Shown here: piece by piece, positions 405 to 64,000 of the stretch | How the letters are laid out: the number at the start of each line of letters is the position of its first letter | How positions within the stretch are numbered: position 1 is the stretch's first letter | DNA from: a virus | Length of the DNA: 64,000 nucleotides | Direction: 5' to 3' (one strand) | IMG/VR virus record: IMGVR_UViG_3300023184_004051 | Span: 1 to 64,000 of that record | The notes under the pieces: generated by a model | Databases searched by the model: none | Told to the model about the DNA's origin: nothing | What the model saw: only the letters and a program-made list of their open reading frames with translations | Position numbers and translations under genes: made by a program

Positions 405-579
405 AGCAGACCGCCGCCGCCACCGACGACCCGCCGCCGCTCAGATATTTCAAGCGGTTTTAGTGAAATGGCTGGCTGGACACCACCCCACACATCTTTC
501 CAAAACTTTCATCCAACTAAACCCCCCTCTATCACCATCATCCCAACACACACTCCCCTACAGTCGCTAGGATTTCACT

Positions 580-1164
580 ATGGCCGACAACTTCCCCAAC
601 TGGTTTGAGCAAACCGCAAAAAATAACTTCACGATGTTCGCCCTTCTCCCTTTGGATGTCAGCAAACCACTGTCTTGTCTCCAAATCGGAACTTTCGCTG
701 GACACGCAAGCGAGTGGATGGCAAAGAACCTACTGAAAAACCCCGACAGTTTCCTTGACGATGTGGACACTTGGGAAGGCAGCGATGAGCCTGCACATCA
801 CCAGATGGACTTTGGAAGCGTCGAAACAGCATATGACGAGAGAATGTCCCGATGGCTGGCTACGGGGCAGGTACGCAAGCACAAGGGGTTCTCAGGTGAT
901 TTCTTTCGCACTTGCGACACCCAATACGACTTCATCTACATTGACGGCGACCACACCGCCGAGGGAGTGCTGAAAGATGCGGTTGATGCAGACCGGCATC
1001 TGAAGCCAAACGGCATTATGGCGTTTGATGATTACACTTGGTCACTTGGTCTTGACCCCTTGCTTGACCCAAAGCCTGCGATTGACGCATTTATGACGGT
1101 GTACGGCCTCCACTACGCAATGATGGCGGTGAATAACCAAGTCTGGCTTCGGAAAAAGCCGTAG
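580..1164 (+). CDS. Class I SAM-dependent methyltransferase (Methyltransf_24-like)
   Basis: LQIGTFAGHAS, VDTWEGS, YDFIYIDGDH and GIMAFDDY motifs; TAGGAT-N6-ATG leaderless start. Confidence 0.85.
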   Translation: MADNFPNWFEQTAKNNFTMFALLPLDVSKPLSCLQIGTFAGHASEWMAKNLLKNPDSFLDDVDTWEGSDEPAHHQMDFGSVETAYDERMSRWLATGQVRKHKGFSGDFFRTCDTQYDFIYIDGDHTAEGVLKDAVDADRHLKPNGIMAFDDYTWSLGLDPLLDPKPAIDAFMTVYGLHYAMMAVNNQVWLRKKP

Positions 1165-1207
1165 GCGATTTTTTTCCCAAAGGGGATTTCACCAACTAAA
1201 CCCCGCT

Positions 1208-2308
1208 CTAGGAGTTGATGGAAGCCCGAAGTTTTTTAGCGAAATCTTTGAGCATTTTTGCGTCGTGAGGCGTGGCCGCTTTCTTGGCTCCCTCGTGGAA
1301 CGCTGCAACGGCGGATTTCACATCATCCATCCCCAAGTGGCAGAAACCCATCCGCTCCAAAGGCAAGTGTTGGTAGGCGGGGTAGAAAACCGGCGCACCG
1401 TCAGTCGTCGGAACAGCACCGATGCAGGCTCGGTAGAAGGGCAGAGCCTTAGCAAAGGCTTGGGACTCGTAAAAGAGGTCGCCCATCAGCACCCACGCTT
1501 CGGCTCGGTCTGGGGCGTAGTGCATTGCCTGAAGGAGGAAGCCTGAAGCCTCCATCTCTTGCTTCAGACGAACGTGGCACTTGGATAGTGAAAGCAGAGC
1601 CTCGTAATACTCCCAAGTGAAGTGCTTCATCTGAAGGAAGTGGTGATATGCCTCGATTGCTTCCTCGTTGCGTTCCAAATCTCGGAGTTCGTTGGCGTAG
1701 TAGTAGGCGGTGCGGGTTGAGGTATCACCGTTATCCAAAAGGCGTTGCAGGATTTTGATGTTGCGGTCAGTGGCTTTTTGGTTGTAGCCGAAGGGGTCGT
1801 TGATGTAGCCATCAGCAAAGTACCAAGAAACGCCATTTTCGGTTCTGACAACTTCGTGAACAGCACCTTCCCATACCGGGTTGTCGTGGCGGTAGACGAG
1901 GCGGGGGACAGGGTAGTGAAATGTGACCCGACCCGTTTGCGGCTCGATGCAACGGTTCATTTCAGCCCAAATCATCGTTTCGTTTTGTGGCCGCTCGTTG
2001 ATGACATTGGTTGATTTGAGCCACTTCCACTTTTCACCACTTTCAGGGGTCACAATGTCCCCTGTGTCTAGCCACATAATCCAATCACCTGTTGCTTTGG
2101 AAAAGGCGAAGTTTCTGGCAGCAGCGAAGTCGTCAATCCACTCAAAGTCGTAAGTGATTGCCCCATAACTTTCAGCAACCTCTTTCGTCTTGTCCAGCGA
2201 GCCGGTGTCTACGACGATGATTTCGTCAATGAAGGACTTCACCCCTTTGAGGGTCTGCCCGATGATGGCTTCGTTGTCGCGGGCGATGATGCAAAGTGAC
2301 CACTTCAT
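1208..2308 (-). CDS. GT2 glycosyltransferase with C-terminal TPR repeats
   Basis: SLCIIARDNE, IIVVDTGSLDKT, DDFAAARN, WIMWLDTGD, WEGAVHE; TPR-like helices (YYYANEL, PDRAEAWVLMGDLFY). Confidence 0.9.
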   Translation of the reverse strand: MKWSLCIIARDNEAIIGQTLKGVKSFIDEIIVVDTGSLDKTKEVAESYGAITYDFEWIDDFAAARNFAFSKATGDWIMWLDTGDIVTPESGEKWKWLKSTNVINERPQNETMIWAEMNRCIEPQTGRVTFHYPVPRLVYRHDNPVWEGAVHEVVRTENGVSWYFADGYINDPFGYNQKATDRNIKILQRLLDNGDTSTRTAYYYANELRDLERNEEAIEAYHHFLQMKHFTWEYYEALLSLSKCHVRLKQEMEASGFLLQAMHYAPDRAEAWVLMGDLFYESQAFAKALPFYRACIGAVPTTDGAPVFYPAYQHLPLERMGFCHLGMDDVKSAVAAFHEGAKKAATPHDAKMLKDFAKKLRASINS

Positions 2309-2310
2309 AG

Positions 2311-3489
2311 TTATTCTCCAAACAGGGTAGGTTGAGTTGCTTCAGGGGTTTGTTCGTTTTGTGCGTTGCGCTCTTTTTCAGCCCACGCCACTCGTGCCTC
2401 AATAATCGGCCAATAGTCCTCGGTGAGTTCGCAGCCCACCCAGTCAAAGCCTTCCAAAACGGCAGCCACGGCGGTAGTTCCCGAACCGAGGAACGGGTCT
2501 AACACCACGCCATTTGGGGGGCAGACGAGGCGAACGAGGTAGCGCATTAGGGCGAGGGGCTTCACCGTCGGGTGGAAGTTCTGCTTTGGCGTTGCAGTCT
2601 CAGGGTCGTGTTCTTTGCCGCCAATTCCGTTGTTCATCGTAGGCGCAAACTGTGCTGGCAAACCCTCTAGCCCAGCATTACGTTCGGCCTTGCTTGCCTT
2701 GGCACAGTAGAAAAATCGAGCGGCGGAGCCTGAACCCATCTCTGTCCGTTCACCATTGTCCACCGCACCCCAGCCACCCTCGTAATGGCGACCAGTTGGC
2801 ACATTGGATTTCTTTGGAAATGCGCCGCCGTTGCTTGCTGGAAAACCTTCCAAAACTTCATCGGAACCATCGTGAATCACATTTGCGGGCCAGCGACCTT
2901 CAGCATTTGCAGGGCCACTTCGCTCTTTAGGTTTATCAGTGTAAGAAGATGCATTTGGGCGTTGATAACCTTTTGCCGTACTTGCAGAGTTGCGGATGTA
3001 TTCACCTTGCTCAATGGCAACTTCATCGCCAAGACCAACTCGTGAAGCGTCAATGTTCAGCGCACCAGTTCCCCACTCCAAGACATTGTTTGCAACTGTT
3101 CCGGTAAGGGGCTTACGAGCAACGACGATGGGTTCGTGAGCAGGTTTGAGAGCCGTTCCCCAGCCCGCCCACTCGTCTTTGAGGTTGAGCGACTTTGGGA
3201 AACCTGAGCCGTAGAGCCACATAATCTGGTCACGCACCTCAAAGCCAGCATCTTCGACAGCGCAGGCAAGGCGGTGATAAGTGCGACTTCCGCCGAAAGC
3301 GAGCAGGTGTCCGCCCGGCTTCAGAACTCGCAGACACTCGGCCCACAGTTCTACGGAGTAAGCGATGCCGGAGTTGTCCCACGACTTGCCCATAAAGCCA
3401 AGTTCGTATGGCGGGTCAGACACAACGCAGTCAATAGAGTTGTCTGCCAGCACTTTTAGTTGTTCTAAACAGTTTCCACGCAGTAGCAC
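2311..3489 (-). CDS. Site-specific DNA methyltransferase (N6-A/N4-C, beta class)
   Basis: DPPY catalytic motif near the N-terminus, HPTVKP, VLDPFLGSGTT. Confidence 0.93.
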   Translation of the reverse strand: MLLRGNCLEQLKVLADNSIDCVVSDPPYELGFMGKSWDNSGIAYSVELWAECLRVLKPGGHLLAFGGSRTYHRLACAVEDAGFEVRDQIMWLYGSGFPKSLNLKDEWAGWGTALKPAHEPIVVARKPLTGTVANNVLEWGTGALNIDASRVGLGDEVAIEQGEYIRNSASTAKGYQRPNASSYTDKPKERSGPANAEGRWPANVIHDGSDEVLEGFPASNGGAFPKKSNVPTGRHYEGGWGAVDNGERTEMGSGSAARFFYCAKASKAERNAGLEGLPAQFAPTMNNGIGGKEHDPETATPKQNFHPTVKPLALMRYLVRLVCPPNGVVLDPFLGSGTTAVAAVLEGFDWVGCELTEDYWPIIEARVAWAEKERNAQNEQTPEATQPTLFGE

Positions 3490-3546
3490 GAAGTCATACT
3501 AGTGAAATAAAACAACCCGTGATGGGCATCCTGTTAGGCTGTGCCG

Positions 3547-4284
3547 ATGCAGACGCAATCCTCGGTGCTACTTCTTGGTGATACTCACGGCGACCCTCAA
3601 TCTTTGGCTGACGCTTTTGCTCGCGCCTACGCCGAGAGGGTAGAAGCCATCATCCAACTTGGTGATTACGGTTTTGGATGGTCAGTTGGCGACGATGGAG
3701 TGTGCGACTACTCGTACTTGACGAACGAGATGGTGAAAAAGTCCGGTATTCCCTTCTATTTTGTTGACGGGAACCACGAGAACTTTGACCGCTTGTATGA
3801 GTTGCCGCTGAATGAGGCTGGACACCGGCCTGTTTTGGAAGGCGTGACCCATTTGCCACGAGGTTCGGTCATCAAGTTTGGTGAAACGACCTTTATGGCG
3901 TTCGGCGGGGCGTATTCGGTAGACAAACCCCACCGTGTTGAGGGCAAATCGTGGTGGAAAGATGAACTTGCGAGCCAAGAGGACATTGACCGAGCGTTAT
4001 CTGCTGGAAAAGCCGACATTTTGCTCACACACGATGCCCCGTGGGGAACCCAGACCGAAGGCGACTTCGTTTGGCTAGAAAAGACCTTTGACAACGATGC
4101 CGTAGTCCTGTCGCAGGCGAACCAGCAACTCATCAACCGAGTTTTGGAAAGTTGCGGAGCCAAAAAAGTCTTTCACGGTCACCTCCACCGGAACTACACA
4201 CGGACTATTTCGGGGACTGACATCGAAGCGACCTGTCTGAACAAGGAAACCTCCGAGGGAAGCATCATTATTCTCCCCGTGTAA
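3547..4284 (+). CDS. Calcineurin-like metallophosphoesterase
   Basis: GDTHG, LGDYG, DGNHE, THDAP, HGHLH. Start moved to ATG 3547 because TAGGCT lies 6 nt upstream. Confidence 0.9.
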   Translation: MQTQSSVLLLGDTHGDPQSLADAFARAYAERVEAIIQLGDYGFGWSVGDDGVCDYSYLTNEMVKKSGIPFYFVDGNHENFDRLYELPLNEAGHRPVLEGVTHLPRGSVIKFGETTFMAFGGAYSVDKPHRVEGKSWWKDELASQEDIDRALSAGKADILLTHDAPWGTQTEGDFVWLEKTFDNDAVVLSQANQQLINRVLESCGAKKVFHGHLHRNYTRTISGTDIEATCLNKETSEGSIIILPV

Positions 4285-4323
4285 TGCCCACATTCCACTA
4301 CACGGGTAAGTAGAGTGTCGTCT

Positions 4324-4476: not shown

Positions 4477-4499
4477 GGGGTGTAGTGAAAAGGACATCT

Positions 4500-5301: not shown

Positions 5302-5356
5302 ATAGCCACTAATCACGCAAATAGTGTGAGGTTTTTATCGGCAAATAGCCGGAAAA

Positions 5357-6940: not shown

Positions 6941-6968
6941 TTCGCTCTCCTTAGTCGGTATGGTCAAC

Positions 6969-13081: not shown

Positions 13082-13355
13082 CCAAATCAGCAGAAGGTAT
13101 GTCTACCAATCCCAACACGACACTTCCAAACACAAGGGCAAAAAATCAGTCTACCTCGTTGAGCAAATGAGGGGAAGCAATGTCATCGCCCGCGTGAAGC
13201 CTCTCGGAATGGTCAGGGAAACCACCGCAGTCGAGGAAATCACCATTGCCCTTATCAACGAGAGCATCACAGTCGTTGGCAAATGGGCTAAGACCAAGCG
13301 TGGTCATCACAGTCGTAGTCGTGCAGTTCTCGGTTCAGAGTTTGAGGTGAACTAA
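13074..13355 (+). CDS. Hypothetical protein
   Basis: Coupled between its neighbours. Confidence 0.6.
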   Translation: MDDQISRRYVYQSQHDTSKHKGKKSVYLVEQMRGSNVIARVKPLGMVRETTAVEEITIALINESITVVGKWAKTKRGHHSRSRAVLGSEFEVN

Positions 13356-13936
13356 TGCCAAGGCCCGTTTACAGCCAGCGAGAAGTTTGGCTCAAAGATG
13401 CCAGATGTCGGGGGATGAACCCAAATCTGTTTTTCCCGATGGATGCTGATGGGCGAATAAAGTTCAAGGTTGACCCGCAAGCCGTAGAAGCGTGTGCCAA
13501 CTGTCCGGTCATTGAGCAATGTGCTGATTGGGCGACCCGCCACGAAGCCTACGGGTATCAAGGTGGAATGACGGAAACCCAACGGGCGCAACGCCGACGC
13601 AAACTGAACATCTTGCTTTGGGAACCGCAACACAACATCACCACCATCAAGCCAGCCGTTCGTTCGTTGCCGGCCCATATCGTTCACGGAACACCAAGCG
13701 GATACAAGATGGAAATCAAGCGGGGTTTTGAGGCTTGCGATGCCTGTCGAGCGGCGCACACGGCGCAGGCTAAGGCGAGCAAAGCAAAGGTGAAACTGCT
13801 GAAACAAGAGCAAGAAGCCGAACGCCAAGCACGGATTTCAGCACGAATGGCGGAACTTGAAGCCGAACGCAAGGCGAACGCCGAGAAGCGAGCGGCGGAA
13901 AAAGCGAAGCGAGCAGCGAGGGCCGCAAGCCGCTGA
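13355..13936 (+). CDS. WhiB family transcription factor with C-terminal HGT/CxxC motif and coiled coil
   Basis: W...ARC, FFP, CANCPVIEQC, GYQGGMT..QR; HGTPSGY...CDACRAAH. Confidence 0.9.
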   Translation: MPRPVYSQREVWLKDARCRGMNPNLFFPMDADGRIKFKVDPQAVEACANCPVIEQCADWATRHEAYGYQGGMTETQRAQRRRKLNILLWEPQHNITTIKPAVRSLPAHIVHGTPSGYKMEIKRGFEACDACRAAHTAQAKASKAKVKLLKQEQEAERQARISARMAELEAERKANAEKRAAEKAKRAARAASR

Positions 13937-18013: not shown

Positions 18014-18217
18014 GTGGCGAACCCTGACGACGAAAATGGCGACGACGAGTTTAGTGAAATGCACGACCCGTTCATTGGTGCGCCGTTATCCGGTCACCTC
18101 GTTGTCGCATTTGGCGAACTCTACAACTCCTTCTCCGCACTTATGGAGAGCGGTTTCACCGAAAACCAAGCCCTAAAGTTCCTCGCCTTCTGCTCTATTT
18201 TTGAGGGCGACTTTTGA
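18014..18217 (+). CDS. Small conserved actinophage-type protein
   Basis: ELYNSFSALMESGFTENQAL motif. Confidence 0.65.
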   Translation: MANPDDENGDDEFSEMHDPFIGAPLSGHLVVAFGELYNSFSALMESGFTENQALKFLAFCSIFEGDF

Positions 18218-18606
18218 CCTACGCCAATCCGAACTACGACGGCACGAACGACTTTTTTTTACCTGAGGATGTCATCCTCATTGACCAACAACTTGCTTTA
18301 GCAATGAAGCCCCCTGCGTGGGCGAAAGACGGAGAGTGTCGAGCGCCGAACGCAGCGAACCTAGACAAGTTCTTTCCCGAAAGCACGAAGCACGGTGGCA
18401 ATCACCTAAAGCCTGCCCGTGAGATGTGCCTCAGATGCCCTGTGCGCTACGAGTGTTTGGAATACGGGATAGACGAACCTTGGGGGGTTTGGGGTGGTCA
18501 TTCACCAAGCCAGCGCCGTCGCATCATTTCCCTAGTGAAAAATGGTAGTAGCCTATGGGAGGCTAGCCAAGTCATAGATGCACGGAGTAGGGATGCCAGA
18601 GGATAA
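18214..18606 (+). CDS. WhiB family transcription factor
   Basis: W...GEC, FFP, CLRCPVRYECLEY, GVWGGHSPSQRRR. Confidence 0.92.
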   Translation: MTYANPNYDGTNDFFLPEDVILIDQQLALAMKPPAWAKDGECRAPNAANLDKFFPESTKHGGNHLKPAREMCLRCPVRYECLEYGIDEPWGVWGGHSPSQRRRIISLVKNGSSLWEASQVIDARSRDARG

Positions 18607-25195: not shown

Positions 25196-25207
25196 GGGAT
25201 TTCACTA

Positions 25208-36348: not shown

Positions 36349-38493
36349 GTGCTGAAACCGACAACGGATTTGACCGCCGTAAGCCTCTTTGCAGGGGTTG
36401 GCGGGTTTGACTTGGCATTAGAGCGACAAGGCGTAAAAGTCGTCGCTGCGGTGGAAATAGACAAGAACGCCAGAGGGGTTCTTGCACACCGTTTTCCAAA
36501 CAGCACGCTCTTTCCCGATGTCACGGAGGTCACAGGTGAGCAACTTATTTCAGCAGGATTTGTTCCCGAACGAGGCATCCTCACCGGAGGCTTCCCCTGC
36601 CAAGACCTCAGCGTTGCTGGAAAACGGGCCGGTTTGGCTGGCAAGCGTTCTGGCCTCTTTTGGGAAATCGCTCGCCTCATTGACGAACTCACGCCGCAAT
36701 ACTTCATCCTCGAAAATGTCCCCGGTCTTTTGTCATCTAACAGAGGACAAGACTTTGGAGCCGTTCTCGGGGCGCTGGTTGAGCGCGGGTACGGGGTCAC
36801 CTACCGAGTTTTGGATGCTCAATACTTTGGAGTCCCCCAACGCCGCCGTCGAGTGTTCATTGTCGGAAGTTTTGGAGATACCGGGGCCACAACTAGTGAA
36901 ATACTCGCTCTCTCCGAGGGCTTGTCAGGGTATCTTGAACAGAGCATCAAGAAGGAACAAGAAACTTCCACCACTCCTAAACGCCGCACTAGAAGCGGTG
37001 GCGCAGAAGGAAGCGTGACTTCACCACAAACGCTGGCATTTGACACGCAGTTTGGGTCTAACGCAAATGTGTTTGAGGACATTTCACCAACCCTGAAGGC
37101 TTCGCAGGCAGCGCCAAGTTTCACCGAAGTCGGTATGGAGCCGATTTTCTTTGACAGCGCCACTCACGGGGATGGCGCTCGTATTGCTGAAAAGACCATT
37201 CCAACTTTGACTTCCCGTATGGGAACGGGCGGGAATAACACCCCCCTTGTCGCCTACGCCGACCCAATCATCGGCATTGACCAAGAACTCAATGCCCGTG
37301 AGAACATCATTGGCTCGCTCGTCGCCGGTGCAAATAGCGGAACGCAAATACAGGCAGTTGCCTACTCGGTGCGTGAGGATGCACAGAGCAACACTTTCAG
37401 CGCAACCGAACTCTCGGCAGTCAACGCCTTGCAAGCCCACCAACCATCACCACAAAGTCATCACGCTCAAACCTTCATCGTGGAAGTCGAGCCGACGATT
37501 TTTCCAATCCAAGATGGTCGAGAGATGAACCACCAGCAGAACGGCATCGGCGTGGGTAGTGAAAACGACCCCGCCTACACCCTCCTTGCCACAGGCGGTC
37601 AAAGCATCGCAACAGTTTCGCCCGCAATCACCTCAACCGTTCGTCGCCTCACTCCAAAGGAGTGTGAGCGGCTTCAAGGATTTCCCACCGTAGAAAACAT
37701 TGGTATTATTGAGTGGTGTTCAGACCCTCTAAAGAACTATGTGGATGCGGAAAACCAAAATCCCAAGTCGCCATCACCTGCTTTGAGTGTCGCAAACGAA
37801 CAGCCGAGCGAGACTGCGAAATCTGCGGAAAACATTTCACCTACAAACGCTCATCAAACCGCCGAACCTGCTCTGGTCAATGTGGAAGTCAACTGCGAGG
37901 GCGAAATGCTGGAAATACACAGTCAAGGAAAGTTGATATTGTCTGTGAATACTGCGGAGAAGTCAAGCAGGTCAGCCCATCCTCTGCTAAACGCAGATTT
38001 TGTTCCACGGCTTGTGCTTACATTGCAAACTCTGGGTCTAATAACGCTCAATGGCAAGGTGGCATCACCAACGAGCGAGACAAGTTTGACAACAGTAAAG
38101 AGTGGCGTGCCGTTCGTAAGGCTGTCTGGCAACGAGATGACGCTACTTGCCAAAGATGTCGTATCCGATTTGACCATACAACACCCACCTACCACACCCA
38201 CCACATTGTTCCTTTCGGACACGAACCACTTAGAACAGAACTTACAAACCTTGTGTTGCTCTGTAATCCCTGCCATCATTGGGTTCACTCAAACGCCAAC
38301 CAACGGGGTGACTACTTACAGGTTCCACCTACGGGCGAAGCAACCGTGGACAGAGTTCCGCATTGACGAAAAGAAGGGTTTGATTTCACAAGCCGACGCT
38401 CCCCGCTACAAGCAAATGGGAAATGCCGTTGCTGTTCCCTGTGTCGAATGGATTGTGAAGCGGCTCGTTGAGATTGACAGGGCTACGAGGTGA
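36349..38493 (+). CDS. C5-cytosine DNA methyltransferase with in-frame insertion
   Basis: SLFAGVGG, GGFPCQDLS, ENVPG, PQRRRRVF, RRLTPKECERLQGFP...WT...RYKQMGNAVAVP. Confidence 0.92.
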   Translation: MLKPTTDLTAVSLFAGVGGFDLALERQGVKVVAAVEIDKNARGVLAHRFPNSTLFPDVTEVTGEQLISAGFVPERGILTGGFPCQDLSVAGKRAGLAGKRSGLFWEIARLIDELTPQYFILENVPGLLSSNRGQDFGAVLGALVERGYGVTYRVLDAQYFGVPQRRRRVFIVGSFGDTGATTSEILALSEGLSGYLEQSIKKEQETSTTPKRRTRSGGAEGSVTSPQTLAFDTQFGSNANVFEDISPTLKASQAAPSFTEVGMEPIFFDSATHGDGARIAEKTIPTLTSRMGTGGNNTPLVAYADPIIGIDQELNARENIIGSLVAGANSGTQIQAVAYSVREDAQSNTFSATELSAVNALQAHQPSPQSHHAQTFIVEVEPTIFPIQDGREMNHQQNGIGVGSENDPAYTLLATGGQSIATVSPAITSTVRRLTPKECERLQGFPTVENIGIIEWCSDPLKNYVDAENQNPKSPSPALSVANEQPSETAKSAENISPTNAHQTAEPALVNVEVNCEGEMLEIHSQGKLILSVNTAEKSSRSAHPLLNADFVPRLVLTLQTLGLITLNGKVASPTSETSLTTVKSGVPFVRLSGNEMTLLAKDVVSDLTIQHPPTTPTTLFLSDTNHLEQNLQTLCCSVIPAIIGFTQTPTNGVTTYRFHLRAKQPWTEFRIDEKKGLISQADAPRYKQMGNAVAVPCVEWIVKRLVEIDRATR
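37716..38366 (+). CDS. HNH endonuclease with zinc ribbons, nested out of frame in the C5 methyltransferase
   Basis: Several CxxC motifs, WQGG, W.AVRKAVWQRD..TCQRC, HHIVP...NLVLLCNPCH..VH; TATTAT-N6-GTG start. Confidence 0.88.
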   Translation: MFRPSKELCGCGKPKSQVAITCFECRKRTAERDCEICGKHFTYKRSSNRRTCSGQCGSQLRGRNAGNTQSRKVDIVCEYCGEVKQVSPSSAKRRFCSTACAYIANSGSNNAQWQGGITNERDKFDNSKEWRAVRKAVWQRDDATCQRCRIRFDHTTPTYHTHHIVPFGHEPLRTELTNLVLLCNPCHHWVHSNANQRGDYLQVPPTGEATVDRVPH

Positions 38494-39497
38494 AATCAAC
38501 CATCCTTCTAGGCGATGTTCGGAAGCGCCTTTTGGAAATCCCTGACGAGACAATCCAAACCGTAATCACCTCCCCGCCTTACTTTGGCTTACGGGACTAT
38601 GGGGTAGACGGTCAGATAGGTTTGGAAAAATCACCTGAGGACTTCGTGGATGCACTTGTTGAGTTGTTCCGTGAAGTCCGCCGTGTGCTGAAATCTGATG
38701 GAACAGTCTGGCTCAACTTGGGCGACAGTTATTGGGGCGGTAAGGGTCAGTCTGCGAATGGCGGTGCTGAACACCAAGCGGAGAGAGCGAAGCGTGGCGC
38801 AAGCCTCAACCAAGCGCATCAAACGCTCGGTGGTAAAAACCAAACCCGACCAACCGACGGGAAACACCACACCATCAAGCCCAAAGACCTCATCGGCATC
38901 CCGTGGCGTGTCGCTTTTGCCCTACAGGATGACGGCTGGTATTTGCGCTCAGACATCATTTGGTCAAAACCGAACCCAATGCCTGAAGCAATGAAAGACC
39001 GGCCTACAAAGGCTCACGAGTATCTGTTCTTGCTTTCCAAATCACCAAAGTATTACTACGACCACAATGCCATCAGAGAACCGCTTAGTGAGGCCACAAA
39101 AAAGCGTGACCTTGCCCCAAGGGGGCGCTCCCAAAATGGAGGCGGTAGTGAAAAGAGTATGGCTGGATATTCTTACACACCCGAACTTGGAAATATGACG
39201 AGCAACCCACTAGGGCGCAACCGCCGTTCGGTTTGGAGCATCAACACAAAACCATTCAAGGGCGCTCACTTTGCGGTAATGCCCGAAGCCCTTGTAGAGC
39301 CGTGTGTCCTTGCCGGTTCAGCACAGGGGGACACAGTTCTTGACCCCTTTATGGGAAGCGGAACGGTTGCTGTTGTGGCGAACCGTTTTGGAAGGAACTT
39401 CGTGGGAACCGAACTCAACCCTGCATATGCTGAAATCGCCAAGACGAGGATTGTGGATGCAGCCCCCTTACTCAATGAGGTGAACATCGTTGACTAA
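38490..39497 (+). CDS. DNA methyltransferase (N4-C/N6-A)
   Basis: TSPPY, WLNLGDSY, HFAVMP, VLDPFMGSGT. Confidence 0.93.
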   Translation: MKSTILLGDVRKRLLEIPDETIQTVITSPPYFGLRDYGVDGQIGLEKSPEDFVDALVELFREVRRVLKSDGTVWLNLGDSYWGGKGQSANGGAEHQAERAKRGASLNQAHQTLGGKNQTRPTDGKHHTIKPKDLIGIPWRVAFALQDDGWYLRSDIIWSKPNPMPEAMKDRPTKAHEYLFLLSKSPKYYYDHNAIREPLSEATKKRDLAPRGRSQNGGGSEKSMAGYSYTPELGNMTSNPLGRNRRSVWSINTKPFKGAHFAVMPEALVEPCVLAGSAQGDTVLDPFMGSGTVAVVANRFGRNFVGTELNPAYAEIAKTRIVDAAPLLNEVNIVD

Positions 39498-40593
39498 TGC
39501 CCGTATCCTCATTGGCGATGCCCGCAAGCGTCTTGCTGAAATCCCTGATGGCTCAGTTCGTTGCGCCGTGACTTCACCACCCTATTTTGGATTGCGTGAC
39601 TACGGGACTTCAGATTACGAAGGTGGCGACCCGAACTGCGAACACACGATTTCAGCGACAGATGCGGATGGGAAAGCGGTCTTTGCCGAGCGTGTGACCC
39701 GTGGTGATAGGTCTGCTTGCCTGAAGTGTGGGGCTACCCGTGTTGACAGCCAAATGGGTTTGGAACAAACTCCTGCCGCCTATGTTAGTGAAATGGTTGG
39801 CTTGTTCCGTGAGGTCAAGCGTGTTCTTGCTGATGACGGAACCCTGTGGCTCAACCTCGGAGACTCCTATGCGGGAGGTGGTGGTGGAAACTACAACAAG
39901 ACCGGCATCTCCCAAGCGGGCGGTCAGCACATCGCCAATGTCCGCAATCGCCCAGATTGGTTGCAAAACGCTGGTGTAAAGCCGAAGGACTTGATGGGTG
40001 TTCCTTGGCGAGTGGCTCTCGGATTACAGCAAGACGGTTGGTACCTCCGCAGCGACATCATTTGGCACAAGCCCAATCCGATGCCTGAGAGCGTCACCGA
40101 CAGGCCGACCAAAGCCCACGAGTATGTCTTTCTCCTTTCCAAATCACCTAAATACTTCTACGACTACGAAGCGGTCAAAGAGGATGGCGTGATGCCCGCC
40201 GGATACAAAGCGGCAAAGGGAAGTGCTGAAAGGTATGGGATGGAGGGCGTGAACGCTCGACCACCGGAATACAAGGTCTATGACGGGAAGCGGAACCGCA
40301 GGTCGGTTTGGACAATAAACACCAAGCCGTTCAAGGGAGCGCATTTTGCCGTGATGCCAGAGGCGTTGGTGGAACCGTGCGTCTTGGCAGGCTCGGAAAT
40401 CGGGGATACGGTGCTTGACCCTTTCACCGGAAGTGGGACTGTAGCCGTCGTAGCAATGCGTTTTGGAAGGCACTTCATCGGCACAGAACTGAACCCTGAG
40501 TATGGTGAAATCGCTCGCACACGGATTGAGGGCGACCAACCTCTAATGAACAATGTTGTTTTGGACTTCAGCACAAAGGCGACAAATGACTGA
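39490..40593 (+). CDS. DNA methyltransferase (N4-C/N6-A), tandem paralog
   Basis: TSPPY, WLNLGDSY, HFAVMP, VLDPFTGSGT; extra CxH...CxxC loop. Confidence 0.93.
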   Translation: MTNARILIGDARKRLAEIPDGSVRCAVTSPPYFGLRDYGTSDYEGGDPNCEHTISATDADGKAVFAERVTRGDRSACLKCGATRVDSQMGLEQTPAAYVSEMVGLFREVKRVLADDGTLWLNLGDSYAGGGGGNYNKTGISQAGGQHIANVRNRPDWLQNAGVKPKDLMGVPWRVALGLQQDGWYLRSDIIWHKPNPMPESVTDRPTKAHEYVFLLSKSPKYFYDYEAVKEDGVMPAGYKAAKGSAERYGMEGVNARPPEYKVYDGKRNRRSVWTINTKPFKGAHFAVMPEALVEPCVLAGSEIGDTVLDPFTGSGTVAVVAMRFGRHFIGTELNPEYGEIARTRIEGDQPLMNNVVLDFSTKATND

Positions 40594-41414: not shown

Positions 41415-41463
41415 TAGATGTCTAGTTTCGTTTGAGTTTTGGAAGTAGCATCAGGCTCATCTA

Positions 41464-53945: not shown

Positions 53946-53957
53946 GAGAGTAGTGAA

Positions 53958-54344
53958 ATGGATATCACGGTTCAGGTAGACACGAGCAACCTCGTGCTTC
54001 ACCAAAAGTCACAACAAATCAACGAGATGATTGCTCGCAGCGTAAGCGATGTCATCGAGAAGGTCTTTGCTGAAAGCCAAATCCTTGTTCCCGTCAACAC
54101 GGGTGCATTGAAAGCCTCCGGTCAAGTGGTGAAAGAGTCGCCTGAGGAAAATGGGGCGCTCAGTTCCTCCTACATCACTTATGGTGATGCAACCGTTGAT
54201 TACGCTGTGTCAGTTCACGAGGACTTGTCTATGCCTCACGCTGCCCCAACGCAAGCCAAGTACCTAGAAACCCCGTTAGTGAAAAATGTGCCGCTTTTGG
54301 AAAGTCTCATCCGAGCGCGGCTGAAAGTGATTTTGTATTCGTGA
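53958..54344 (+). CDS. HK97 gp10-like neck protein
   Basis: SQILVPVNTGALKASG, YAVSVHE, QAKYLETP. Confidence 0.85.
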   Translation: MDITVQVDTSNLVLHQKSQQINEMIARSVSDVIEKVFAESQILVPVNTGALKASGQVVKESPEENGALSSSYITYGDATVDYAVSVHEDLSMPHAAPTQAKYLETPLVKNVPLLESLIRARLKVILYS

Positions 54345-57744: not shown

Positions 57745-57890
57745 CCGAGAAGTTAGGGAGAACGGTTGGCGAACTCCTAGAAGGTTCTCCCGCACATAGG
57801 CCGATGTCCGCTAGTGAAATGGTGGAGTGGCAGGCAGTTTGGAAAATCCGAGCGTATGAGCAAGAGGAAGCAATGAAGGAGAATGGCTAA
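57696..57890 (+). other. Programmed -1 frameshift site and gpGT extension
   Basis: GGGAAAA at 57696-57702; the -1 frame reads RFYANPERRFLFELAEKLGRTVGELL...EMVEWQAVWKIR to TAA at 57890. Confidence 0.88.
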
Positions 57891-57914
57891 CTGCTAAGAG
57901 GAAGGTGGTGAAAA

Positions 57915-60900
57915 ATGGAAGAAAGTATGCGTATCCGAATACTCGGAGATGCGTCTAGCGCCCAAACCGCTTTTCAGCAAGCAGAGAAGGCCGCTCAACT
58001 TGCGGCTGACAAAATCAGTCACTCTTTCAATCACCTCGGAAGCCTGTTCAAGCGAACCATTGGCTTCGCTGGCATCGCCGTTGGTCTTGATACCGCGCTG
58101 GAAAGTGCATCGCACCTCATCAACGCTCAGAAGGCACAGGCTCAACTCCTGTCCAACCAAGCGAAACAGCAGGGCAGTATCATCAAGTTGCAGGACTTTG
58201 AGTTGGAAGGCAATGCAAAGGCTTACGCTTGGAAGTCCAAAACGCTTGACCAGATGGCGACGCAGTTATCACTAAACAACGCCATTTCCAAATCAGACAT
58301 CGTTCAGGCGCAGAACCGGCAACTCACGAACACGGACTTGCTGAAGTTCTACTCCAAGGGCAACGCTGCGCTTTCACAACAGAACCAGACTTACAAAGAC
58401 ATCGTGAACGAAGCCCGCCTCCACGGGGTAGCAATGTCAGGTTCTCAGGCAGCAATGGCGACGACGCTGACCACCGCAGCCAACCTTGCTGAAGTCACGG
58501 GTCAAGGCATCAACGGCTCAATGATGATGTTGACTCGTTTGATGGCTGACCCTGCCAAGCGAATGTCGGCAATGTCCCGTATGGGTATCCAAATCGCCAA
58601 GTCTGACCAAGAGCGCATCAAGGCGCTGGAAAAAACCAAGGGTCTGATGGCGGCTCAGGGTGAGTTGCTGAATGTTTTGGATAAGACCTATCACGGGATT
58701 GCCGCAACAGCAGCCTCGCCGGTAGAAATCCTGAAAAACGCCTTGGCAAACGTTTGGACTGCATTGGGCGAAGGTCTTATGCCTGTGCTGGAAAGTTTGT
58801 CTGCCGTTGTTATTGAGGTGGTGACACCACTTCTCCCTGTCCTTCAGAGTATGGGCAGCCTCATTGAGGAAGTAGCAAAACGACTCGGTACATCGCTCGG
58901 TTCGTTGATTTCCGACCTCATCCCCTTCATCGACCTCTTAGTGAAAGGGATGCTGCCCGCATTTTTTGACCTCATCACGCCTCTCGTGCAGATGGCCGAC
59001 AAAGCGATTACACCACTTGCCCAAGCGTTCTCGCAGTTGGTTGGTGAGGGTGAGAAAATGGGCCCCCTTTCCCAAGCGTTTTTGGATATGGGCAAGACCA
59101 TTGGTGAAAACTTGAAGCCTGCGGTGGACTTCATCGCTGATGCCTTCAAGAAAATGTCCAAAGACGGCACTCTGGACAAGATGATGAAAAGCCTTTTGGA
59201 TACCTTCAAGGCTCTTGCTCCCATCCTTCCCGACCTCGCCGTTGCATTGGCGAACTTGGTGATTGCGATTACTCCCGCCTTCATCGCTGCACTTCCCATA
59301 ATGGTTGATGCCTTTGCATTGTTCGTGCAAATCCTGACTGCGATTACACCACTCGTCGTGGATGTGGCAAACGGCATTGCCGACTTGGTGAAAAAGATTA
59401 CGGACAACAAGGGCTTGACCGGCGTTATTGGCACACTCATCGGCCTTTGGTTCACCAAGAGCCTGTTCATCACTCCACTCGTCGCCATTACTTCGGGTAT
59501 TGGAATGATTATCACCAAAATCATTTCGGCTGGCTCGGCTCTGAAGGGCGTTGGCTCAATCGCCAAGGGGCTTTTCACTAAGGGCTTTGGCGGGGCTTCG
59601 GCTGCACGACTCGGTTCATTGGATAGACGAGCCGACATCGCCACGAGCAAGGCAACAGCGGCATTTGGAATGTATGGTGGTGAAAGTGGTCGCTACAAGC
59701 GAGCAGCCGCCAAGCAAAAAGAGGCAGTTGAGCGCGCTGAAGCGTTCCGTGGGCGGGTCAACACAGTTGCCGGTGCTGGCGGTGGTGTAAAAGGACTCCT
59801 GAAGTCGGTATTCGGTTTTGGACTTGGAACAGGTTTCAAGCCCGCAAGTGAAGTTGACGCAGTAAACCAAAACACCCAAGCACTCATTGAGTTGACCGCA
59901 ACCCTCGGTCGAACAGCAGGCGGTCTGTCCGGCGGTTTTGGAAGTGGGGGTAGTGGAAAATCTAAGCCGATGACTGACTTGGAAAAGACTTATGCTGAAC
60001 TTCACGCTAGGCAATATGGCGGAAGTAGCGGAAGGGGAGCCATACCGGGGCTTCAGTCTTTGCAAACCGCTCTTGCTGAAAATGGCTATGCCGGTAAGAA
60101 CGGAAAGCCACCGTCAGGTGGAAAGTTTGGCCGCTTCGGTTCGTTTATGAAAAATGAGTTCTCGGCTATGGGCGAGGATGTCAGGAATGGCGCTGCCCGA
60201 ACCAGTAGGATTGGCTCAAAGATTGCCGGATTTGGCAGACTTGGAAGGTTCAGCGCCGGTTCTGGCATTGTCGGTGGTCTTGCCTCGGCTGGTATTGGAA
60301 TGGCAATGCCTCTCCTTCAGAAGGTGATGCCAAAGAAAGCGGCAAATGTCCTTGGTGGGGTCGCTCAGGGCGCTTCTATGGGAATGATGTTCGGCCCTTG
60401 GGGTGCAGCCATCGGAGCGGCAATCGGCCTAGTGAAATCCTTGTTCCAAAACTGCAAGCCTTTCCACGACTTCGTTATCAAGGTCGGCCACAAACTGATG
60501 GAGTGGGGCAAGATTATTTGGACAAAAGTTCAGCCTGTCCTGAAGGTGGTTTGGGAAATCATCAAAAAAATCGCCACCATCTACATCAAGGCAATGATTT
60601 TCGGGTTCAAGATTGTGTGGGGTGTCATCAAGATGGTTTGGAACGTGCTGAAAACCGTCTGGGATGTTCTGTACGCCATTGGTAAGTGGGTCGTTGGCGT
60701 GCTGATGGCTTACTTCAAGGGTTGGTGGACAATCATCAAAGCGGTTTGGGGCATACTGAGTGGCATTTGGGATGGCCTTGTATCTGGTGGAAAGACCGCT
60801 TGGGGCTGGCTGAAGGGTATGTTTGGGTGGATAAAAGACGCAGGGGGAAACGTGTGGGATGCGCTTTACAACGGTTTTGTTTGGGCGGTAAACAAGATTA

Positions 60901-61265
60901 TTGGTCTTTACAACGGAACCCTTGGCAATCTGTTGAGTTGGATTGGCGTGGATGCCAAAATCGGCACACTGACGTATGTTGACCACCACAGCAAGCCCAA
61001 GAAGCACCACTCCGGCGGTATCGTTCAGGGGCCACGAGGCAAGGAAGTTCCGGCCATCTTGCAGGCGGGTGAGGCTGTCACTTCGCTAGCCCAAATGAAC
61101 GCAGGTCGCAACAGGGGAGCGGGCAACACCCTCAATGTCCAACCAAACGCTGTCACCATCGTGGTCAACGGCAATGCCGACGCTGCGACTACTGCTGAAA
61201 TCAAGAAGCACGTTGATGCTCAGTTCAAGGAACTGCACCGCACCCTGAGGGGTATGGGTCGGTAA
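57915..61265 (+). CDS. Tape measure protein
   Basis: 1116 aa, helical, periodic Pro/Trp repeats, HHSGGIV...EVPAILQAGE C-terminal motif. Confidence 0.92.
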   Translation: MEESMRIRILGDASSAQTAFQQAEKAAQLAADKISHSFNHLGSLFKRTIGFAGIAVGLDTALESASHLINAQKAQAQLLSNQAKQQGSIIKLQDFELEGNAKAYAWKSKTLDQMATQLSLNNAISKSDIVQAQNRQLTNTDLLKFYSKGNAALSQQNQTYKDIVNEARLHGVAMSGSQAAMATTLTTAANLAEVTGQGINGSMMMLTRLMADPAKRMSAMSRMGIQIAKSDQERIKALEKTKGLMAAQGELLNVLDKTYHGIAATAASPVEILKNALANVWTALGEGLMPVLESLSAVVIEVVTPLLPVLQSMGSLIEEVAKRLGTSLGSLISDLIPFIDLLVKGMLPAFFDLITPLVQMADKAITPLAQAFSQLVGEGEKMGPLSQAFLDMGKTIGENLKPAVDFIADAFKKMSKDGTLDKMMKSLLDTFKALAPILPDLAVALANLVIAITPAFIAALPIMVDAFALFVQILTAITPLVVDVANGIADLVKKITDNKGLTGVIGTLIGLWFTKSLFITPLVAITSGIGMIITKIISAGSALKGVGSIAKGLFTKGFGGASAARLGSLDRRADIATSKATAAFGMYGGESGRYKRAAAKQKEAVERAEAFRGRVNTVAGAGGGVKGLLKSVFGFGLGTGFKPASEVDAVNQNTQALIELTATLGRTAGGLSGGFGSGGSGKSKPMTDLEKTYAELHARQYGGSSGRGAIPGLQSLQTALAENGYAGKNGKPPSGGKFGRFGSFMKNEFSAMGEDVRNGAARTSRIGSKIAGFGRLGRFSAGSGIVGGLASAGIGMAMPLLQKVMPKKAANVLGGVAQGASMGMMFGPWGAAIGAAIGLVKSLFQNCKPFHDFVIKVGHKLMEWGKIIWTKVQPVLKVVWEIIKKIATIYIKAMIFGFKIVWGVIKMVWNVLKTVWDVLYAIGKWVVGVLMAYFKGWWTIIKAVWGILSGIWDGLVSGGKTAWGWLKGMFGWIKDAGGNVWDALYNGFVWAVNKIIGLYNGTLGNLLSWIGVDAKIGTLTYVDHHSKPKKHHSGGIVQGPRGKEVPAILQAGEAVTSLAQMNAGRNRGAGNTLNVQPNAVTIVVNGNADAATTAEIKKHVDAQFKELHRTLRGMGR

Positions 61266-61302
61266 ATCCCGACTTCGTGGGGTAGAGTGGTGATTGAGCG
61301 AG

Positions 61303-64000
61303 ATGAAAACTTACTACGCCAATCCAAACTACGCCGAGGCTGGCAACTCCGATAACTGGGTAGTAGTAGGGGCGCAAAGTGCTGATGTTTCCGTCAATGA
61401 CTTGACACAGTTGGCCGTTGGCAACATTTCAGCACCAACAAGTGCCTCAACTACCGGGTATTACTTCGCCCAAGTAGAGGATTTGACCCGCCTGACAAAG
61501 GGATGGTCATACCTCACCAAGACCAATCTCGGCCCTCGCAACCAAGCGAATGACACCTTTCAAGGCAACCGCCCGCAAGCGCCTGTCTCGGAACCCTATG
61601 TCTATGTTGCTGAAATCAACGGCTTCCTCAATGGCGACACTCTGGCAGTTTTGGAAGGTCAGCAAGAGAACCAACCTCCATTTTCCAATGCCGCCACTTC
61701 ATCTGACTATGGGACAAGTCAGTGGTCAGTCGTTCGCAACGCCGGTCTTATCCCGCTCGTCAGCACCGACCCCGGAAACTCCACCACATCGTTCTTGCAA
61801 CCCGAGAACTCGTCATCCCTCGCTTCACGCCTCATCGCCTACAACAACATTGACTATGGCGACACGAACTACGGAAACACCTACACGGATGACGGTGGCA
61901 ACACTCTGCCTGTCCCTGCAACCAAGAACTACGGCTCAAAGTTCACCCCAACTCCCGACAACTTGGGAAATGGAACAACGCAGAACTGGTATCTCGTCGC
62001 TTCAGGTGATGACACGGCTCAGGCAAACCTTCTCACGATGCTGCCGGATTTCACTACCGATGGCGAGCAAGTTGTCAGCGTGCAGGTTGGGCAGACCGCA
62101 ACAACCGTCACTTTGAGTGCGGCAAACTCCGCTTTCACCGTCGGTCAGACCTTGACGATTGTGACGAACAGCACAGGGGTGAGCAGTTCGCTGCCTTACC
62201 TGTCTACAAGCGCCCCGATGGGTTGGTTTGCTGGAAAGATTACAAGCATTGCCGGTGCGACCCTCTACACCGACCTCAACGACACCACTTCCAATACCGG
62301 AACGCTTGACCCCCTGCCCGGAAGCCTCAATAATGCTTTGACATTCACCGGCACAGTTTTGGGAACGAACACGATTACGATTTCAGCAGTTGGCTCAACA
62401 TCCAACTATGGCATCGCCGCCGGTCACACCCTGACTCTGACCAACACGATTTCCACTATCAGTTCAACGGCCTCAACCTTCACGGTCACCACGAGCGCCA
62501 CGCACTACATCGTTGCAGGTCAACAGGTCACCATCGCTGGCGTGACAGGGGCTACTTACACTCCTTACAACGGGACTTGGACTGTCGCTACGGTTGGGGC
62601 AACCACTTTCACCGTGACAAGCACCATCAACCCCGGAACGGTTAGCCCTGCGAGTGCAACGGCTTCGCAACAGGCGTATGTCGGCTCAATCATCGGAAAC
62701 GGCGTGGGTGCTGTAATCACGCTAGATGCCTATGGTGGGCCAATGGGACTCAATACCGCCATCACAAACGGCTCTGGCATCTCGTTTTCAGCAAACTACC
62801 TTGACAACAATGTGCGAGCATACGCAGCGACAATCACCAACTACACGCTCCGTGTCAATGACGACGGCAACAAGTTGGACTGCCAATACTCAACTGCGCC
62901 TTATTACGCCCAAAACTGCAAACTCTCCCTCTCATCGGCACTTTCCACTACCGGCGCTACGACGCAGGTTGTTCTCCGCAACAACGATGTGTATGACTAC
63001 ACCATCTATGGGGCGACGAACGGTGGAGTAGTTGTTGCAGTCATCTCAGGCGACAACTACCAAGAAATCACCGTCACGAGCGACACAACCATCTTGGGTT
63101 TTGGAACAGCAACCGCCACGGCTACAAGTTTCACGCCAAACTTCGCTTACCCCGCTCGCATCACCTCGCTTTACGATGTCACTCAGACAAAAAGTGGTGA
63201 TAATGACCGATACGGCAAAGTTCTTGTCCTCCCTGTCATCCCGCAGATTTACCGCAACGCCCCAATAGCGCAGTTCAAGAGTATGACCGCTTTGAGTGGT
63301 GGAATAACCGAAACGATTTCCGGCTCTACCTATTACTACGGGACAGTTGGAAGCACTTACTTCTCGTCTGACCCCTACACGGTTTCAGTAGATGATGTTT
63401 CCAATATCAACGTTGGCGACACGCTTACTTTCCGCAACGACTACAACCCGTGGTTCAGCAACTACACGACCAAGCCTCCGACATCCTCTGAATGGTCAAC
63501 CTATGGCGACAATGTGCCTTGGAGTTGGACACTCACCGATAGCGGCGCTTCAGGTTTCACCTGCACGAGCGGGGCGACCTTCATCATCCTTCCTGATGCA
63601 AATGGCTACTCCCTCCCCCTAGTGAAAGGGCAAGCAGCGTTCGGTGCGCCAACCTATGTTCCAAATGGGGCAAAAGTCACGGGTTGGAACGCCACGCAGA
63701 TTTTCTTTGACCAAAACACCACAGCAACCGTCGCCACCCCTGCCCAAAACATCCGCTTCTACCCCGGAACTTCAGGCTTCAACTATTGGAAGGTTTACTC
63801 GGTCAACACGGCGGATAACACCTTCGTCATCTACGGTTCGTCGGGGGCATACGAGCAGATTTCAGCATCTTACGGAACCAACGGCGACAGTCAGAACTAC
63901 ATCTTTGACTACAGTAATCACCTCTACGCAGGGAATACTGTAGACATTTCCAGCACGATTGGCGTTGGAGCGGGCGTTGTCGGACTGTCAAGTGCGGTAA
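61303..64000 (+). CDS. Large tail protein, truncated by window end (not in ORF track)
   Basis: Start MKTYYANPNYAEAG is in frame with the last codons of the window; T/S/G/N-rich; contains an HYIVAGQQVTIAGV...YNGTWTV repeat typical of tail proteins. Confidence 0.8.
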   Translation, partial: MKTYYANPNYAEAGNSDNWVVVGAQSADVSVNDLTQLAVGNISAPTSASTTGYYFAQVEDLTRLTKGWSYLTKTNLGPRNQANDTFQGNRPQAPVSEPYVYVAEINGFLNGDTLAVLEGQQENQPPFSNAATSSDYGTSQWSVVRNAGLIPLVSTDPGNSTTSFLQPENSSSLASRLIAYNNIDYGDTNYGNTYTDDGGNTLPVPATKNYGSKFTPTPDNLGNGTTQNWYLVASGDDTAQANLLTMLPDFTTDGEQVVSVQVGQTATTVTLSAANSAFTVGQTLTIVTNSTGVSSSLPYLSTSAPMGWFAGKITSIAGATLYTDLNDTTSNTGTLDPLPGSLNNALTFTGTVLGTNTITISAVGSTSNYGIAAGHTLTLTNTISTISSTASTFTVTTSATHYIVAGQQVTIAGVTGATYTPYNGTWTVATVGATTFTVTSTINPGTVSPASATASQQAYVGSIIGNGVGAVITLDAYGGPMGLNTAITNGSGISFSANYLDNNVRAYAATITNYTLRVNDDGNKLDCQYSTAPYYAQNCKLSLSSALSTTGATTQVVLRNNDVYDYTIYGATNGGVVVAVISGDNYQEITVTSDTTILGFGTATATATSFTPNFAYPARITSLYDVTQTKSGDNDRYGKVLVLPVIPQIYRNAPIAQFKSMTALSGGITETISGSTYYYGTVGSTYFSSDPYTVSVDDVSNINVGDTLTFRNDYNPWFSNYTTKPPTSSEWSTYGDNVPWSWTLTDSGASGFTCTSGATFIILPDANGYSLPLVKGQAAFGAPTYVPNGAKVTGWNATQIFFDQNTTATVATPAQNIRFYPGTSGFNYWKVYSVNTADNTFVIYGSSGAYEQISASYGTNGDSQNYIFDYSNHLYAGNTVDISSTIGVGAGVVGLSSAV

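Follow-up and report, generated by a model that had tools for sequence, protein, structure and literature searches.

Selected, hyper-abundant short words of two classes in the genome of an uncultured phage

The first 64 kb of the IMG/VR virus record IMGVR_UViG_3300023184_004051 raise a simple question: why do a few octamers recur there, on both strands, far more often than base composition would allow? The record is 108,670 bp long, has a G+C content of 53.8%, and is estimated to be 87% complete; the stretch analyzed, of 64,000 nucleotides, is called the window below, and positions are counted from its first letter unless they are said to be genome positions. A first-pass annotation of the window had grouped these octamers as one family, T-N-N-T-G-R-A-A, and had attributed their abundance to selection on the DNA itself, with binding sites or a modification target as the likely cause. 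No nucleotide match to cultured phages was found by megablast. The portal of this phage is of the Mu type and about 50% identical to the portals of Arthrobacter phages, and 68 related loci, with portals 65 to 88% identical, are present in IMG/VR; the phage and its relatives probably form a clade of uncultured actinophages, for which the sample series suggests a freshwater habitat. Four relatives were compared whole, namely, G001 (121 kb, complete), G002 (114 kb), G003 (95 kb), and G005 (34 kb).

Exact counts show that the words are indeed in large excess. On both strands of the window there are 59 copies of TAGTGAAA (38 on the plus strand and 21 on the minus strand, the outermost at 461 and 63620-63627), 65 of TGCTGAAA, 44 of TGGTGAAA, and 52 of TTTTGGAA, and the whole 108.7-kb genome holds 100, 103, 77, and 82 copies, respectively. 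Simulations based on composition or on a first-order Markov model give 1.3 to 4.4 copies per word, with a simulated maximum of 10; the enrichment is 30- to 50-fold, in the window as in the genome at large, and affects both strands. The earlier estimate of some 50 or more copies of TAGTGAAA, made by eye, was thus close to the mark, and all twelve example coordinates given with it are exact; TTTGGAA and GCTGAAA, which had been called very frequent, occur 116 and 80 times in the window.

The words do not, as had been proposed, make up one family. Only about 5 of the 32 words covered by T-N-N-T-G-R-A-A are enriched, and the class to which TTTTGGAA belongs is independent of the words ending in TGAAA. 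We therefore distinguish class 1, T[AG][GC]TGAAA, from class 2, which is built on TTTGGAA (Table 1). Before TGAAA, the only favored prefixes are TAG, TGC, TGG, and, more weakly, AGG. In its extended form class 1 reads T-R-S-T-G-A-A-A-W-S, an asymmetric element of about 10 bp, with a core common to the clade (GTGAAATC/AGTGAAAT). The spelling is strict: in the whole genome, all 100 copies of TAGTGAA continue with A, nearly all one-mismatch neighbors have 0 to 3 copies, and TAGTGAAC, one of the single-base variants of TAGTGAAATC, TGCTGAAATC, or TTTGGAA, has none. No longer conserved element was found around the words; the flank is kept only at +1 (T or A) and +2 (C or G).

Class 1 sites, counted on both strands, lie within as well as between genes, at roughly one per 350 bp. 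As had been noted, the copies (about 80 to 90% of them intragenic) lie on both strands and in several frames and carry otherwise uncommon codons, such as AGT (13% of Ser codons), CTA (6% of Leu), and TTA (3% of Leu). Word density in noncoding DNA is at least that in coding DNA; 21 copies of TAGTGAAA fall within 11.6 kb of noncoding sequence, and several adjoin start codons. Density is approximately halved in the two early-gene arms (0 to 20 kb and beyond 100 kb), whereas the avoidance of restriction sites described next is uniform.

One explanation would make the words a by-product: so many words may be forbidden in this genome (restriction sites, TA steps, and promoter-like or silencer-prone AT-rich words) that A/T-rich codons pile into the few that are safe. 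Avoidance is certainly extreme. CATG, AGCT, and TTAA are absent from the 108.7 kb, and only 2 GATC and 1 AATT per strand and 5 TATA are present; CCWGG, GGWCC, GAAGA, GAWTC, GTWAC, and more than 20 hexamers (among them CTCGAG, CTGCAG, GGCGCC, AGCGCT, GGTCTC, and GAGGAG) are nearly absent; CGCG, TCGA, GTAC, GGCC, and many others are depleted; and about 20,000 8-mers are missing altogether. This avoidance dictates parts of the words. The shunning of GAAGA makes AAA the codon for Lys in 45 of 45 G_A contexts, and avoided words occur in the majority of Leu-Glu spellings. Rusinov et al., in 2018, are said to have described restriction-site avoidance in phage genomes together with compensating over-represented words.

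We measured what avoidance can account for with nulls in which synonymous codons were swapped while the protein sequence (and hence dipeptides) and codon usage were held fixed and noncoding copies were left in place. Coding copies observed in the whole genome are 79, 93, 66, and 63 for TAGTGAAA, TGCTGAAA, TGGTGAAA, and TTTTGGAA, respectively. Under null (a), with no further constraint, 0.6, about 6, about 6, and about 9 copies are expected; under null (b), with 58 near-absent words forbidden, 5.5, 11.7, 10.7, and 19.5; and under null (c), in which 476 depleted 4- to 6-mers, found by iteration, were held at or below their observed counts, about 6, about 14, about 13, and about 22. Avoidance thus lifts the expected counts 2- to 10-fold, and a 3- to 13-fold excess remains. 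Codon usage, dipeptides, and hard or soft avoidance are therefore rejected as a full explanation; since an excess is left when all of these are preserved, the enrichment does not vanish in the shuffles that the first-pass annotation had named as able to overturn it. The phage resembles avoidance-driven phages in its extreme avoidance and in that approximately 8 to 35% of the coding copies are left over from forbidden spellings; it differs in that avoidance-keeping nulls fail to reproduce the larger part of the surplus, or the spacing and conservation described below.

The choice of spelling at individual places leads to the same conclusion. TAGTGAAA is written at 79 of the 187 coding places where a synonymous spelling allows it. 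The peptide X-Ser-Glu-Z, where the codon for Z starts with A, is spelled T-AGT-GAA-A in 35 of 57 cases, the other 22 being divided among 15 spellings, and Ser-Glu pairs in ineligible contexts use 55 spellings; TGCTGAAA occupies 47 of 91 X-Ala-Glu-Z and TGGTGAAA occupies 35 of 63 X-Gly-Glu-Z. Since these peptide contexts are in fact written in many ways, alternatives are evidently allowed and the word is chosen. Occupancy across 31,312 8-mers with at least 40 eligible places each has a median of 1.7% and a 99.9th percentile of 30%, against 35 to 56% for the top words, GTGAAATC, GTTTTGGA, TTTGGAAC, TTTTGGAA, TTTGGAAA, GCTGAAAT, AGTGAAAT, TAGTGAAA, and TGCTGAAA; class 2 words fill 40 to 55% of their eligible places. 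Both the excess left after limiting the 476 depleted words and the alternative spellings in use speak against a pure by-product, which we regard as rather unlikely once the relatives (see below) are also considered.

Occupancy is higher on the sense strand (52%) than on the antisense strand (29%), and in G003 the words are almost exclusively sense, as would be expected if they reflected an effect on translation or mRNA through preferred codon pairs such as NNT-GCT/GGT/AGT-GAA-ANN. We consider this highly improbable: antisense occupancy, at 22 to 33%, still exceeds the genome median more than 10-fold, noncoding DNA is as rich in the words as coding DNA or richer, AGTGAAAT is equally frequent on the two strands in G001 and G002, the first T of the word belongs to the preceding codon, and AGT is otherwise rare. 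For this genome the antisense and intergenic copies contradict it.

Class 1 sites also keep apart from one another. In the central 84 kb, 5 gaps shorter than 50 bp were found, compared with 40 expected from an exponential distribution; gaps of 100 to 300 bp are in excess and long gaps are fewer. As a stricter null, the occupied places were redrawn among the eligible ones for the same word and frame (500 draws). Against this null there are no gaps below 25 bp (14.7 ± 3.1 expected), 4 below 50 bp (26.5 ± 3.9 expected; minimum of the 500 draws, 16), and 32 above 700 bp (47.7 expected). The exclusion acts between different words, with 1 TAG-TGC pair for 5.8 expected, 0 TAG-TGG for 3.4, and 1 TGC-TGG for 5.2. 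Same-strand close pairs number 1 (12.5 expected) and opposite-strand pairs 3 (9.0 expected), the latter with none below 30 bp, and the orientations of neighboring class 1 sites are independent. Between class 1 and TTTGGAA there is no exclusion (49 pairs within 9 to 50 bp, 38.5 expected), and the self-exclusion of class 2 is mild (5 for 9.9 expected). Of 134 frequent hexamers, none excludes itself as strongly as GTGAAA, and self-exclusion of STGAAA was found in all five genomes, i.e., the phage and its four relatives.

Because the three xxxTGAAA words exclude one another and not TTTGGAA, they constitute one functional class, from which TTTGGAA is separate. Two trivial causes of the spacing are ruled out: generic dispersal of AT-rich words or avoidance of curvature, since class 1 and class 2 do not repel, and avoidance of close direct repeats (slippage), since different words exclude one another. 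Spacing periodicity, which the first-pass annotation had thought worth testing, proved to be limited to the 3-nucleotide coding period; neither a 10- to 11-bp period nor any other fixed one was found, and a helically phased or otherwise periodic binding array was accordingly rejected.

This spacing bears on two further explanations. The first is a mutational or repair drive, in which context-specific repair (very-short-patch-like and perhaps tied to a methyltransferase) would turn near-cognate into cognate words without any function. The nearly empty single-mismatch neighbors (such as those of TAGTGAA, with A next in 100 of 100) fit this, there is a surplus of TG/CA and a TA content reduced to half, one C5 and three N6/N4 methyltransferases are present in the phage, and a link between methyltransferases and words of this kind has been examined for HIP1, a cyanobacterial octamer (PMC4390886). 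However, such a drive acts site by site and does not predict cross-word exclusion within 50 bp or fewer long gaps; the swaps between family words at the cost of an amino-acid change, described below, look like selection for membership in the family; and for HIP1 itself, conservation has been taken to favor selection over biased repair (PMC5861425). No Vsr-like gene was seen, although no search was aimed at one. We judge a drive of this kind unlikely.

The second holds that the words are strand-specific replication signals, e.g., sites favored for priming or loading that each template strand would need at regular distances. Bacterial Okazaki fragments are much longer than about 350 bp. The coverage-like spacing, with fewer long gaps and an excess at 100 to 200 bp, is in keeping with such signals, as are the stronger exclusion on the same strand (1 versus 12.5) than between strands (3 versus 9.0) and the confinement of the sites to one strand in one relative. 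On the other hand, a spacing of about 350 bp falls far below the Okazaki length, exclusion below 30 bp also affects opposite strands, and no phage primase or polymerase turned up among approximately 50 proteins scanned, no dedicated search having been made; the presence of a DnaD-like initiator or loader suggests that host replication enzymes are used. We regard replication signals as very unlikely.

The related phages also carry the words, and the alignments point to conservation at close range followed by turnover with density kept. Compared with G005 (79% nucleotide identity), the same word is kept at 43 of 72 aligned class 1 sites (60%), against a baseline of 24% for identical 8-mers; 8 of the 72 (11%) carry a different word of the family, a swap that entails an amino-acid change. 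At the 73% identity of G001 and G002, sites are kept in position at close to the baseline rate, yet the words remain dense. Class 1 is thus a single functional class whose words exclude one another at short range and replace one another in evolution. Occupancy is again highest for AGTGAAAT and GTGAAATC, at 59% and 50% in G001 and 41% and 43% in G002, on both strands, and the two are among the top-occupancy words in G003. Preferences vary by lineage, with G001 favoring CAGTGAAA, TGGTGGAA, and TGCTGGAA and G002 using almost solely (T)AGTGAAAT(C). In G003 (L074-L078) nearly all words are on the coding strand (TAGTGAAA 21:0, TGGTGAAA 60:8, and GTGAAAT 47:0), and none of the eligible antisense places is filled (0 of 68 for TAGTGAAA). 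We rejected type III-like avoidance on one strand as the cause in G003, where the strand asymmetry of GTGAAA is no greater than that of many other words.

The relatives also separate the words from avoidance. AGCT is avoided by all relatives and GATC by nearly all, but the rest of the avoided set varies by lineage, and relatives tolerate differing sites (AATT, ACGT, GTAC, or TCGA; G002, for example, has 416 AATT, 467 ACGT, and 500 TCGA). Since relatives with different tolerated sites share the words, the shared words do not follow the avoidance sets. Among 55 loci that share a related N6/N4 methyltransferase, the words were found only in members of the clade, and three phages outside it that likewise lack GATC and AGCT are without them, as is Arthrobacter phage Kovu; the words are thus restricted to one phage clade. 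The highest density seen is in one of the clade members among these loci, L186 (IMGVR_UViG_3300009151_005779, 15.8 kb), with 21 copies of TAGTGAAA, or 1.3 per kb; 25% of this locus is alignable to the clade at the nucleotide level, and it lacks GATC and AGCT and contains CATG. Neither mutual exclusion within 50 bp nor the family-word swaps are predicted by avoidance.

The raw 8-mer spectra of some relatives are dominated by a different phenomenon. A gene 3' of the portal carries long tandem acidic-codon repeats (with units such as GAACTGTCGTC and AGCAGTTC; L017:5029-8336, L054:12228-12516, and L035:12117-12474), and such repeats could pass for dispersed motifs. The top 8-mers GAACTGTC, AGCAGTTC, and CTTGAAG were set aside as the product of these local repeats.

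If the words were defined by the host, as Chi and uptake tags are, they should be abundant in its chromosome. Among 401 evenly sampled Actinomycetota genomes, 15 of them unpublished (G127, G008, G181, G398, G233, G055, G246, G025, G343, G155, G089, G275, G325, G350, and G095), none is enriched in TAGTGAAA over the reversed control, the highest count being 167 against 132 in 2.3 Mb. This weakens the case for a host-defined word. Scans of genome collections gave no clue to the host: a WhiB query gave no match, a C5-methylase query gave only distant matches in unrelated phyla, and a lysin query for unrelated phages of the same host gave one distant match only. The parS half-site and the CRP/GlxR, BldD, Zur, and extended -10 elements do not fit the words, because no palindromic partner or flank is conserved.

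A Chi-like signal, read by a host nuclease/helicase (RecBCD or AdnAB) or another host system, would protect cut DNA or block CRISPR spacer capture. To our knowledge, no short-range exclusion among Chi sites is known. The words share with Chi an octamer length and a G/T-rich 5' part, and Chi is under positive selection and accumulates in some phage groups (PMC3784561); restriction pressure on this phage is heavy, and one relative uses a single word orientation. Chi is set by an enzyme of the host, whose chromosome carries it in excess and with a skew; the phage words, by contrast, are about 10-fold denser than any known Chi, their neighbor orientations are independent, and they exclude one another below 50 bp, which would not be expected. 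Phages outside the clade with the same avoidance of GATC and AGCT lack them, and TAGTGAAA is not enriched in the 401 Actinomycetota genomes sampled. A signal of this kind is, in our estimation, quite improbable.

Two other known systems invite comparison. The uptake sequences (USS/DUS) of Pasteurellaceae and Neisseriaceae are 9 to 12 bp long, occur about once per kb on both strands and within genes, and are spaced more evenly than random. The phage words similarly lie inside genes, in more than one frame and on either strand, and are evenly spaced; unlike these chromosomal tags, which serve a competence machinery, they are phage-specific and are unenriched in the Actinomycetota genomes sampled. 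The stoperators of Cluster A mycobacteriophages are sites of 13 to 14 bp, about 25 to 35 in number, mostly intergenic, co-oriented with transcription, and read by one phage protein. Both cases involve many copies of an asymmetric site across an actinophage genome, but here there are approximately 300 sites of 8 to 10 bp, mostly intragenic and in both orientations. A stoperator or repressor array is ruled out by the intragenic share and by the independent orientations of neighbors. The words thus do not form a stoperator array, cannot be shown to be Chi or uptake sequences, and are more than a by-product of codon usage or restriction-site avoidance.

The closest described phenomenon is HIP1 (GCGATCGC) of cyanobacteria, an octamer that is 15- to 300-fold over-represented within and between genes; its conservation between genomes has led to selection being inferred over biased repair, its function and reader are open, no RNA or peptide role has been found, and its genomes carry orphan methyltransferases (PMC5861425; PMC4390886). 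Like HIP1, the phage words are more than 15-fold enriched in and between genes, and they are conserved above background at 79% identity (60% the same and 11% swapped versus 24%). Unlike HIP1, which is a palindrome of cellular chromosomes with a 10- to 90-kb periodicity, they are asymmetric and phage-borne, fall into two multiword classes, and show mutual exclusion at short range (<50 bp). They are not palindromes, as a HIP1-type word containing methyltransferase target sites would be, and the methyltransferases of the phage are candidate modifiers only.

Enrichment and selection at the DNA level on the exact words of two independent classes are what the nulls, the occupancy, and the mutual exclusion establish, and conservation agrees with them; the selection on the DNA that the first-pass annotation had inferred is thus supported. 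As to cause, we tentatively favor the reading, to which we would give somewhat less than an even chance, that the words are dispersed recognition sites of a sequence-specific DNA-binding or DNA-modifying protein, probably encoded by the phage. The class 1 sites behave as interchangeable units kept about 30 to 50 bp or more apart. Each would then be a landing place for one protein whose footprint or reach covers a few tens of base pairs, and selection would act on the number and spread of the sites, as in a tag or coat of the whole genome, and not on where each one lies. The existence of a protein that reads the words, its being encoded by the clade, and the role of the tag in protecting or marking phage DNA or in organizing the genome are inferred from these patterns. 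A more specific version, which we offer as a doubtful possibility, is that a clade-conserved protein reads the words of about 10 bp (core GTGAAATC) as a genome-wide tag, at about 1 per 100 to 350 bp and spaced beyond its footprint, thereby coating or marking phage DNA as against host DNA, with a second reader for TTTGGAA.

Several observations weigh against recognition sites for such a protein. The binding sites or modification target proposed earlier fit the footprint-like exclusion, but no reader protein or modification has been identified, and no Lsr2 or HU homologue that might act as the reader is encoded in the phage. The favored prefixes (TAG, TGC, TGG, and AGG, not TAC) do not form a clean degenerate motif, and avoidance accounts for roughly 8 to 35% of coding copies, depending on the word. 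The words of G003 are almost only on the coding strand, the focal phage itself has a 1.5- to 2-fold bias to the plus (sense) strand, and opposite-strand exclusion is clear only below 30 bp; such strand biases are not predicted by a purely orientation-blind duplex binder.

Other features of the genome are given in Table 1 or noted here. TAGTGAAA often lies directly 5' of a start codon (as TAGTGAAATG or TAGTGAAAATG), after a purine-rich stretch resembling a ribosome site (window positions 53951-53960, 461-470, and 57812-57821; also genome positions 101974-101983 and 95471-95481); start-proximal copies are also found at 4483, at 41462, and, on the minus strand, at 25200. The TAG and TGA inside the word can also end an upstream frame, and TAGTGAAA may thus double as a gene-junction module. 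The proteome of about 130 genes includes two WhiB proteins (13355-13936 and 18214-18606), an XkdF-type head protease, a PD-(D/E)XK nuclease, a SNF2/HARP helicase, the DnaD-like initiator (genome positions 77187-78008), ParB_N proteins, an amidoligase, and a glutamine amidotransferase. The WhiB proteins, the initiator, and the double ParB_N protein described below are DNA-associated and conserved in the clade. The C5 methyltransferase and two of the N6/N4 methyltransferases are clustered on the plus strand (36349..40593). A 403-amino-acid protein at genome positions 88561-89772 (plus strand) has two ParB_N domains (PHROG 8071, E = 5e-90), and Arthrobacter phage Kovu has three ParB-like genes. 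The Amidoligase_2 and glutamine amidotransferase genes form one minus-strand cluster at the right end of the genome (103714-106571), and the left arm encodes a family 2 glycosyltransferase with TPR repeats (window positions 1208-2308, minus strand). Gene sets of this kind accompany base hypermodification in other phages, and by that analogy the phage DNA may carry a noncanonical base.

Table 1. Positions of the words and of candidate modification genes in the window
Feature	Position	Strand	Details
Class 1 words, T[AG][GC]TGAAA	461..63627	both	179 copies (119 on +, 60 on -): TAGTGAAA 59, TGCTGAAA 65, TGGTGAAA 44, TACTGAAA 11
Class 2 words, on TTTGGAA	113..63106		TTTTGGAA 52, GTTTTGGA 56, TTTGGAAA 46, GTTTGGAA 31; TTTGGAA 116
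TAGTGAAA, part 1	461, 1586, 1914, 3500, 4483, 4833, 8643, 8790, 14937, 18052, 18533, 20603, 20993, 21572, 23084, 24502, 27490, 28467, 32925	+	
TAGTGAAA, part 2	33819, 34838, 36894, 37557, 39146, 39786, 41462, 43434, 46698, 48315, 51643, 53025, 53951, 54277, 57443, 57812, 58939, 60430, 63620	+	
TAGTGAAA	573, 8890, 14037, 22487, 25200, 26473, 26968, 29349, 30615, 31172, 35510, 40690, 44394, 46088, 47151, 52615, 54733, 56044, 56732, 59573, 62049	-	
Intergenic TAGTGAAA just before a start codon	53951..53958	+	GGAGAG-TAGTGAAATG, ATG at 53958
N6/N4 DNA methyltransferase	2311..3489	-	PF01555, E = 1.3e-34; context only, candidate modifier
C5 DNA methyltransferase	36349-38493	+	PF00145, E = 1.2e-63; context only, candidate modifier
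Two N6/N4 DNA methyltransferases	38490-39497, 39490-40593	+	PF01555, E = 8e-55 and 1e-48; context only, candidate modifiers

Selected hyper-abundant words such as HIP1, uptake sequences, and Chi are known from cellular chromosomes; here they are found in a compact phage genome, accompanied by several complete or near-complete relatives at graded distances. Because the words are interchangeable and mutually excluding, the search for a reader is narrowed to a small proteome. A more general lesson is that, under extreme site avoidance, over-represented words need to be tested before they are dismissed as by-products. If the words are indeed read as a tag, it could shield phage DNA from host or phage nucleases and would be a phage counterpart of chromosomal self-tags, standing beside site avoidance and methylation.

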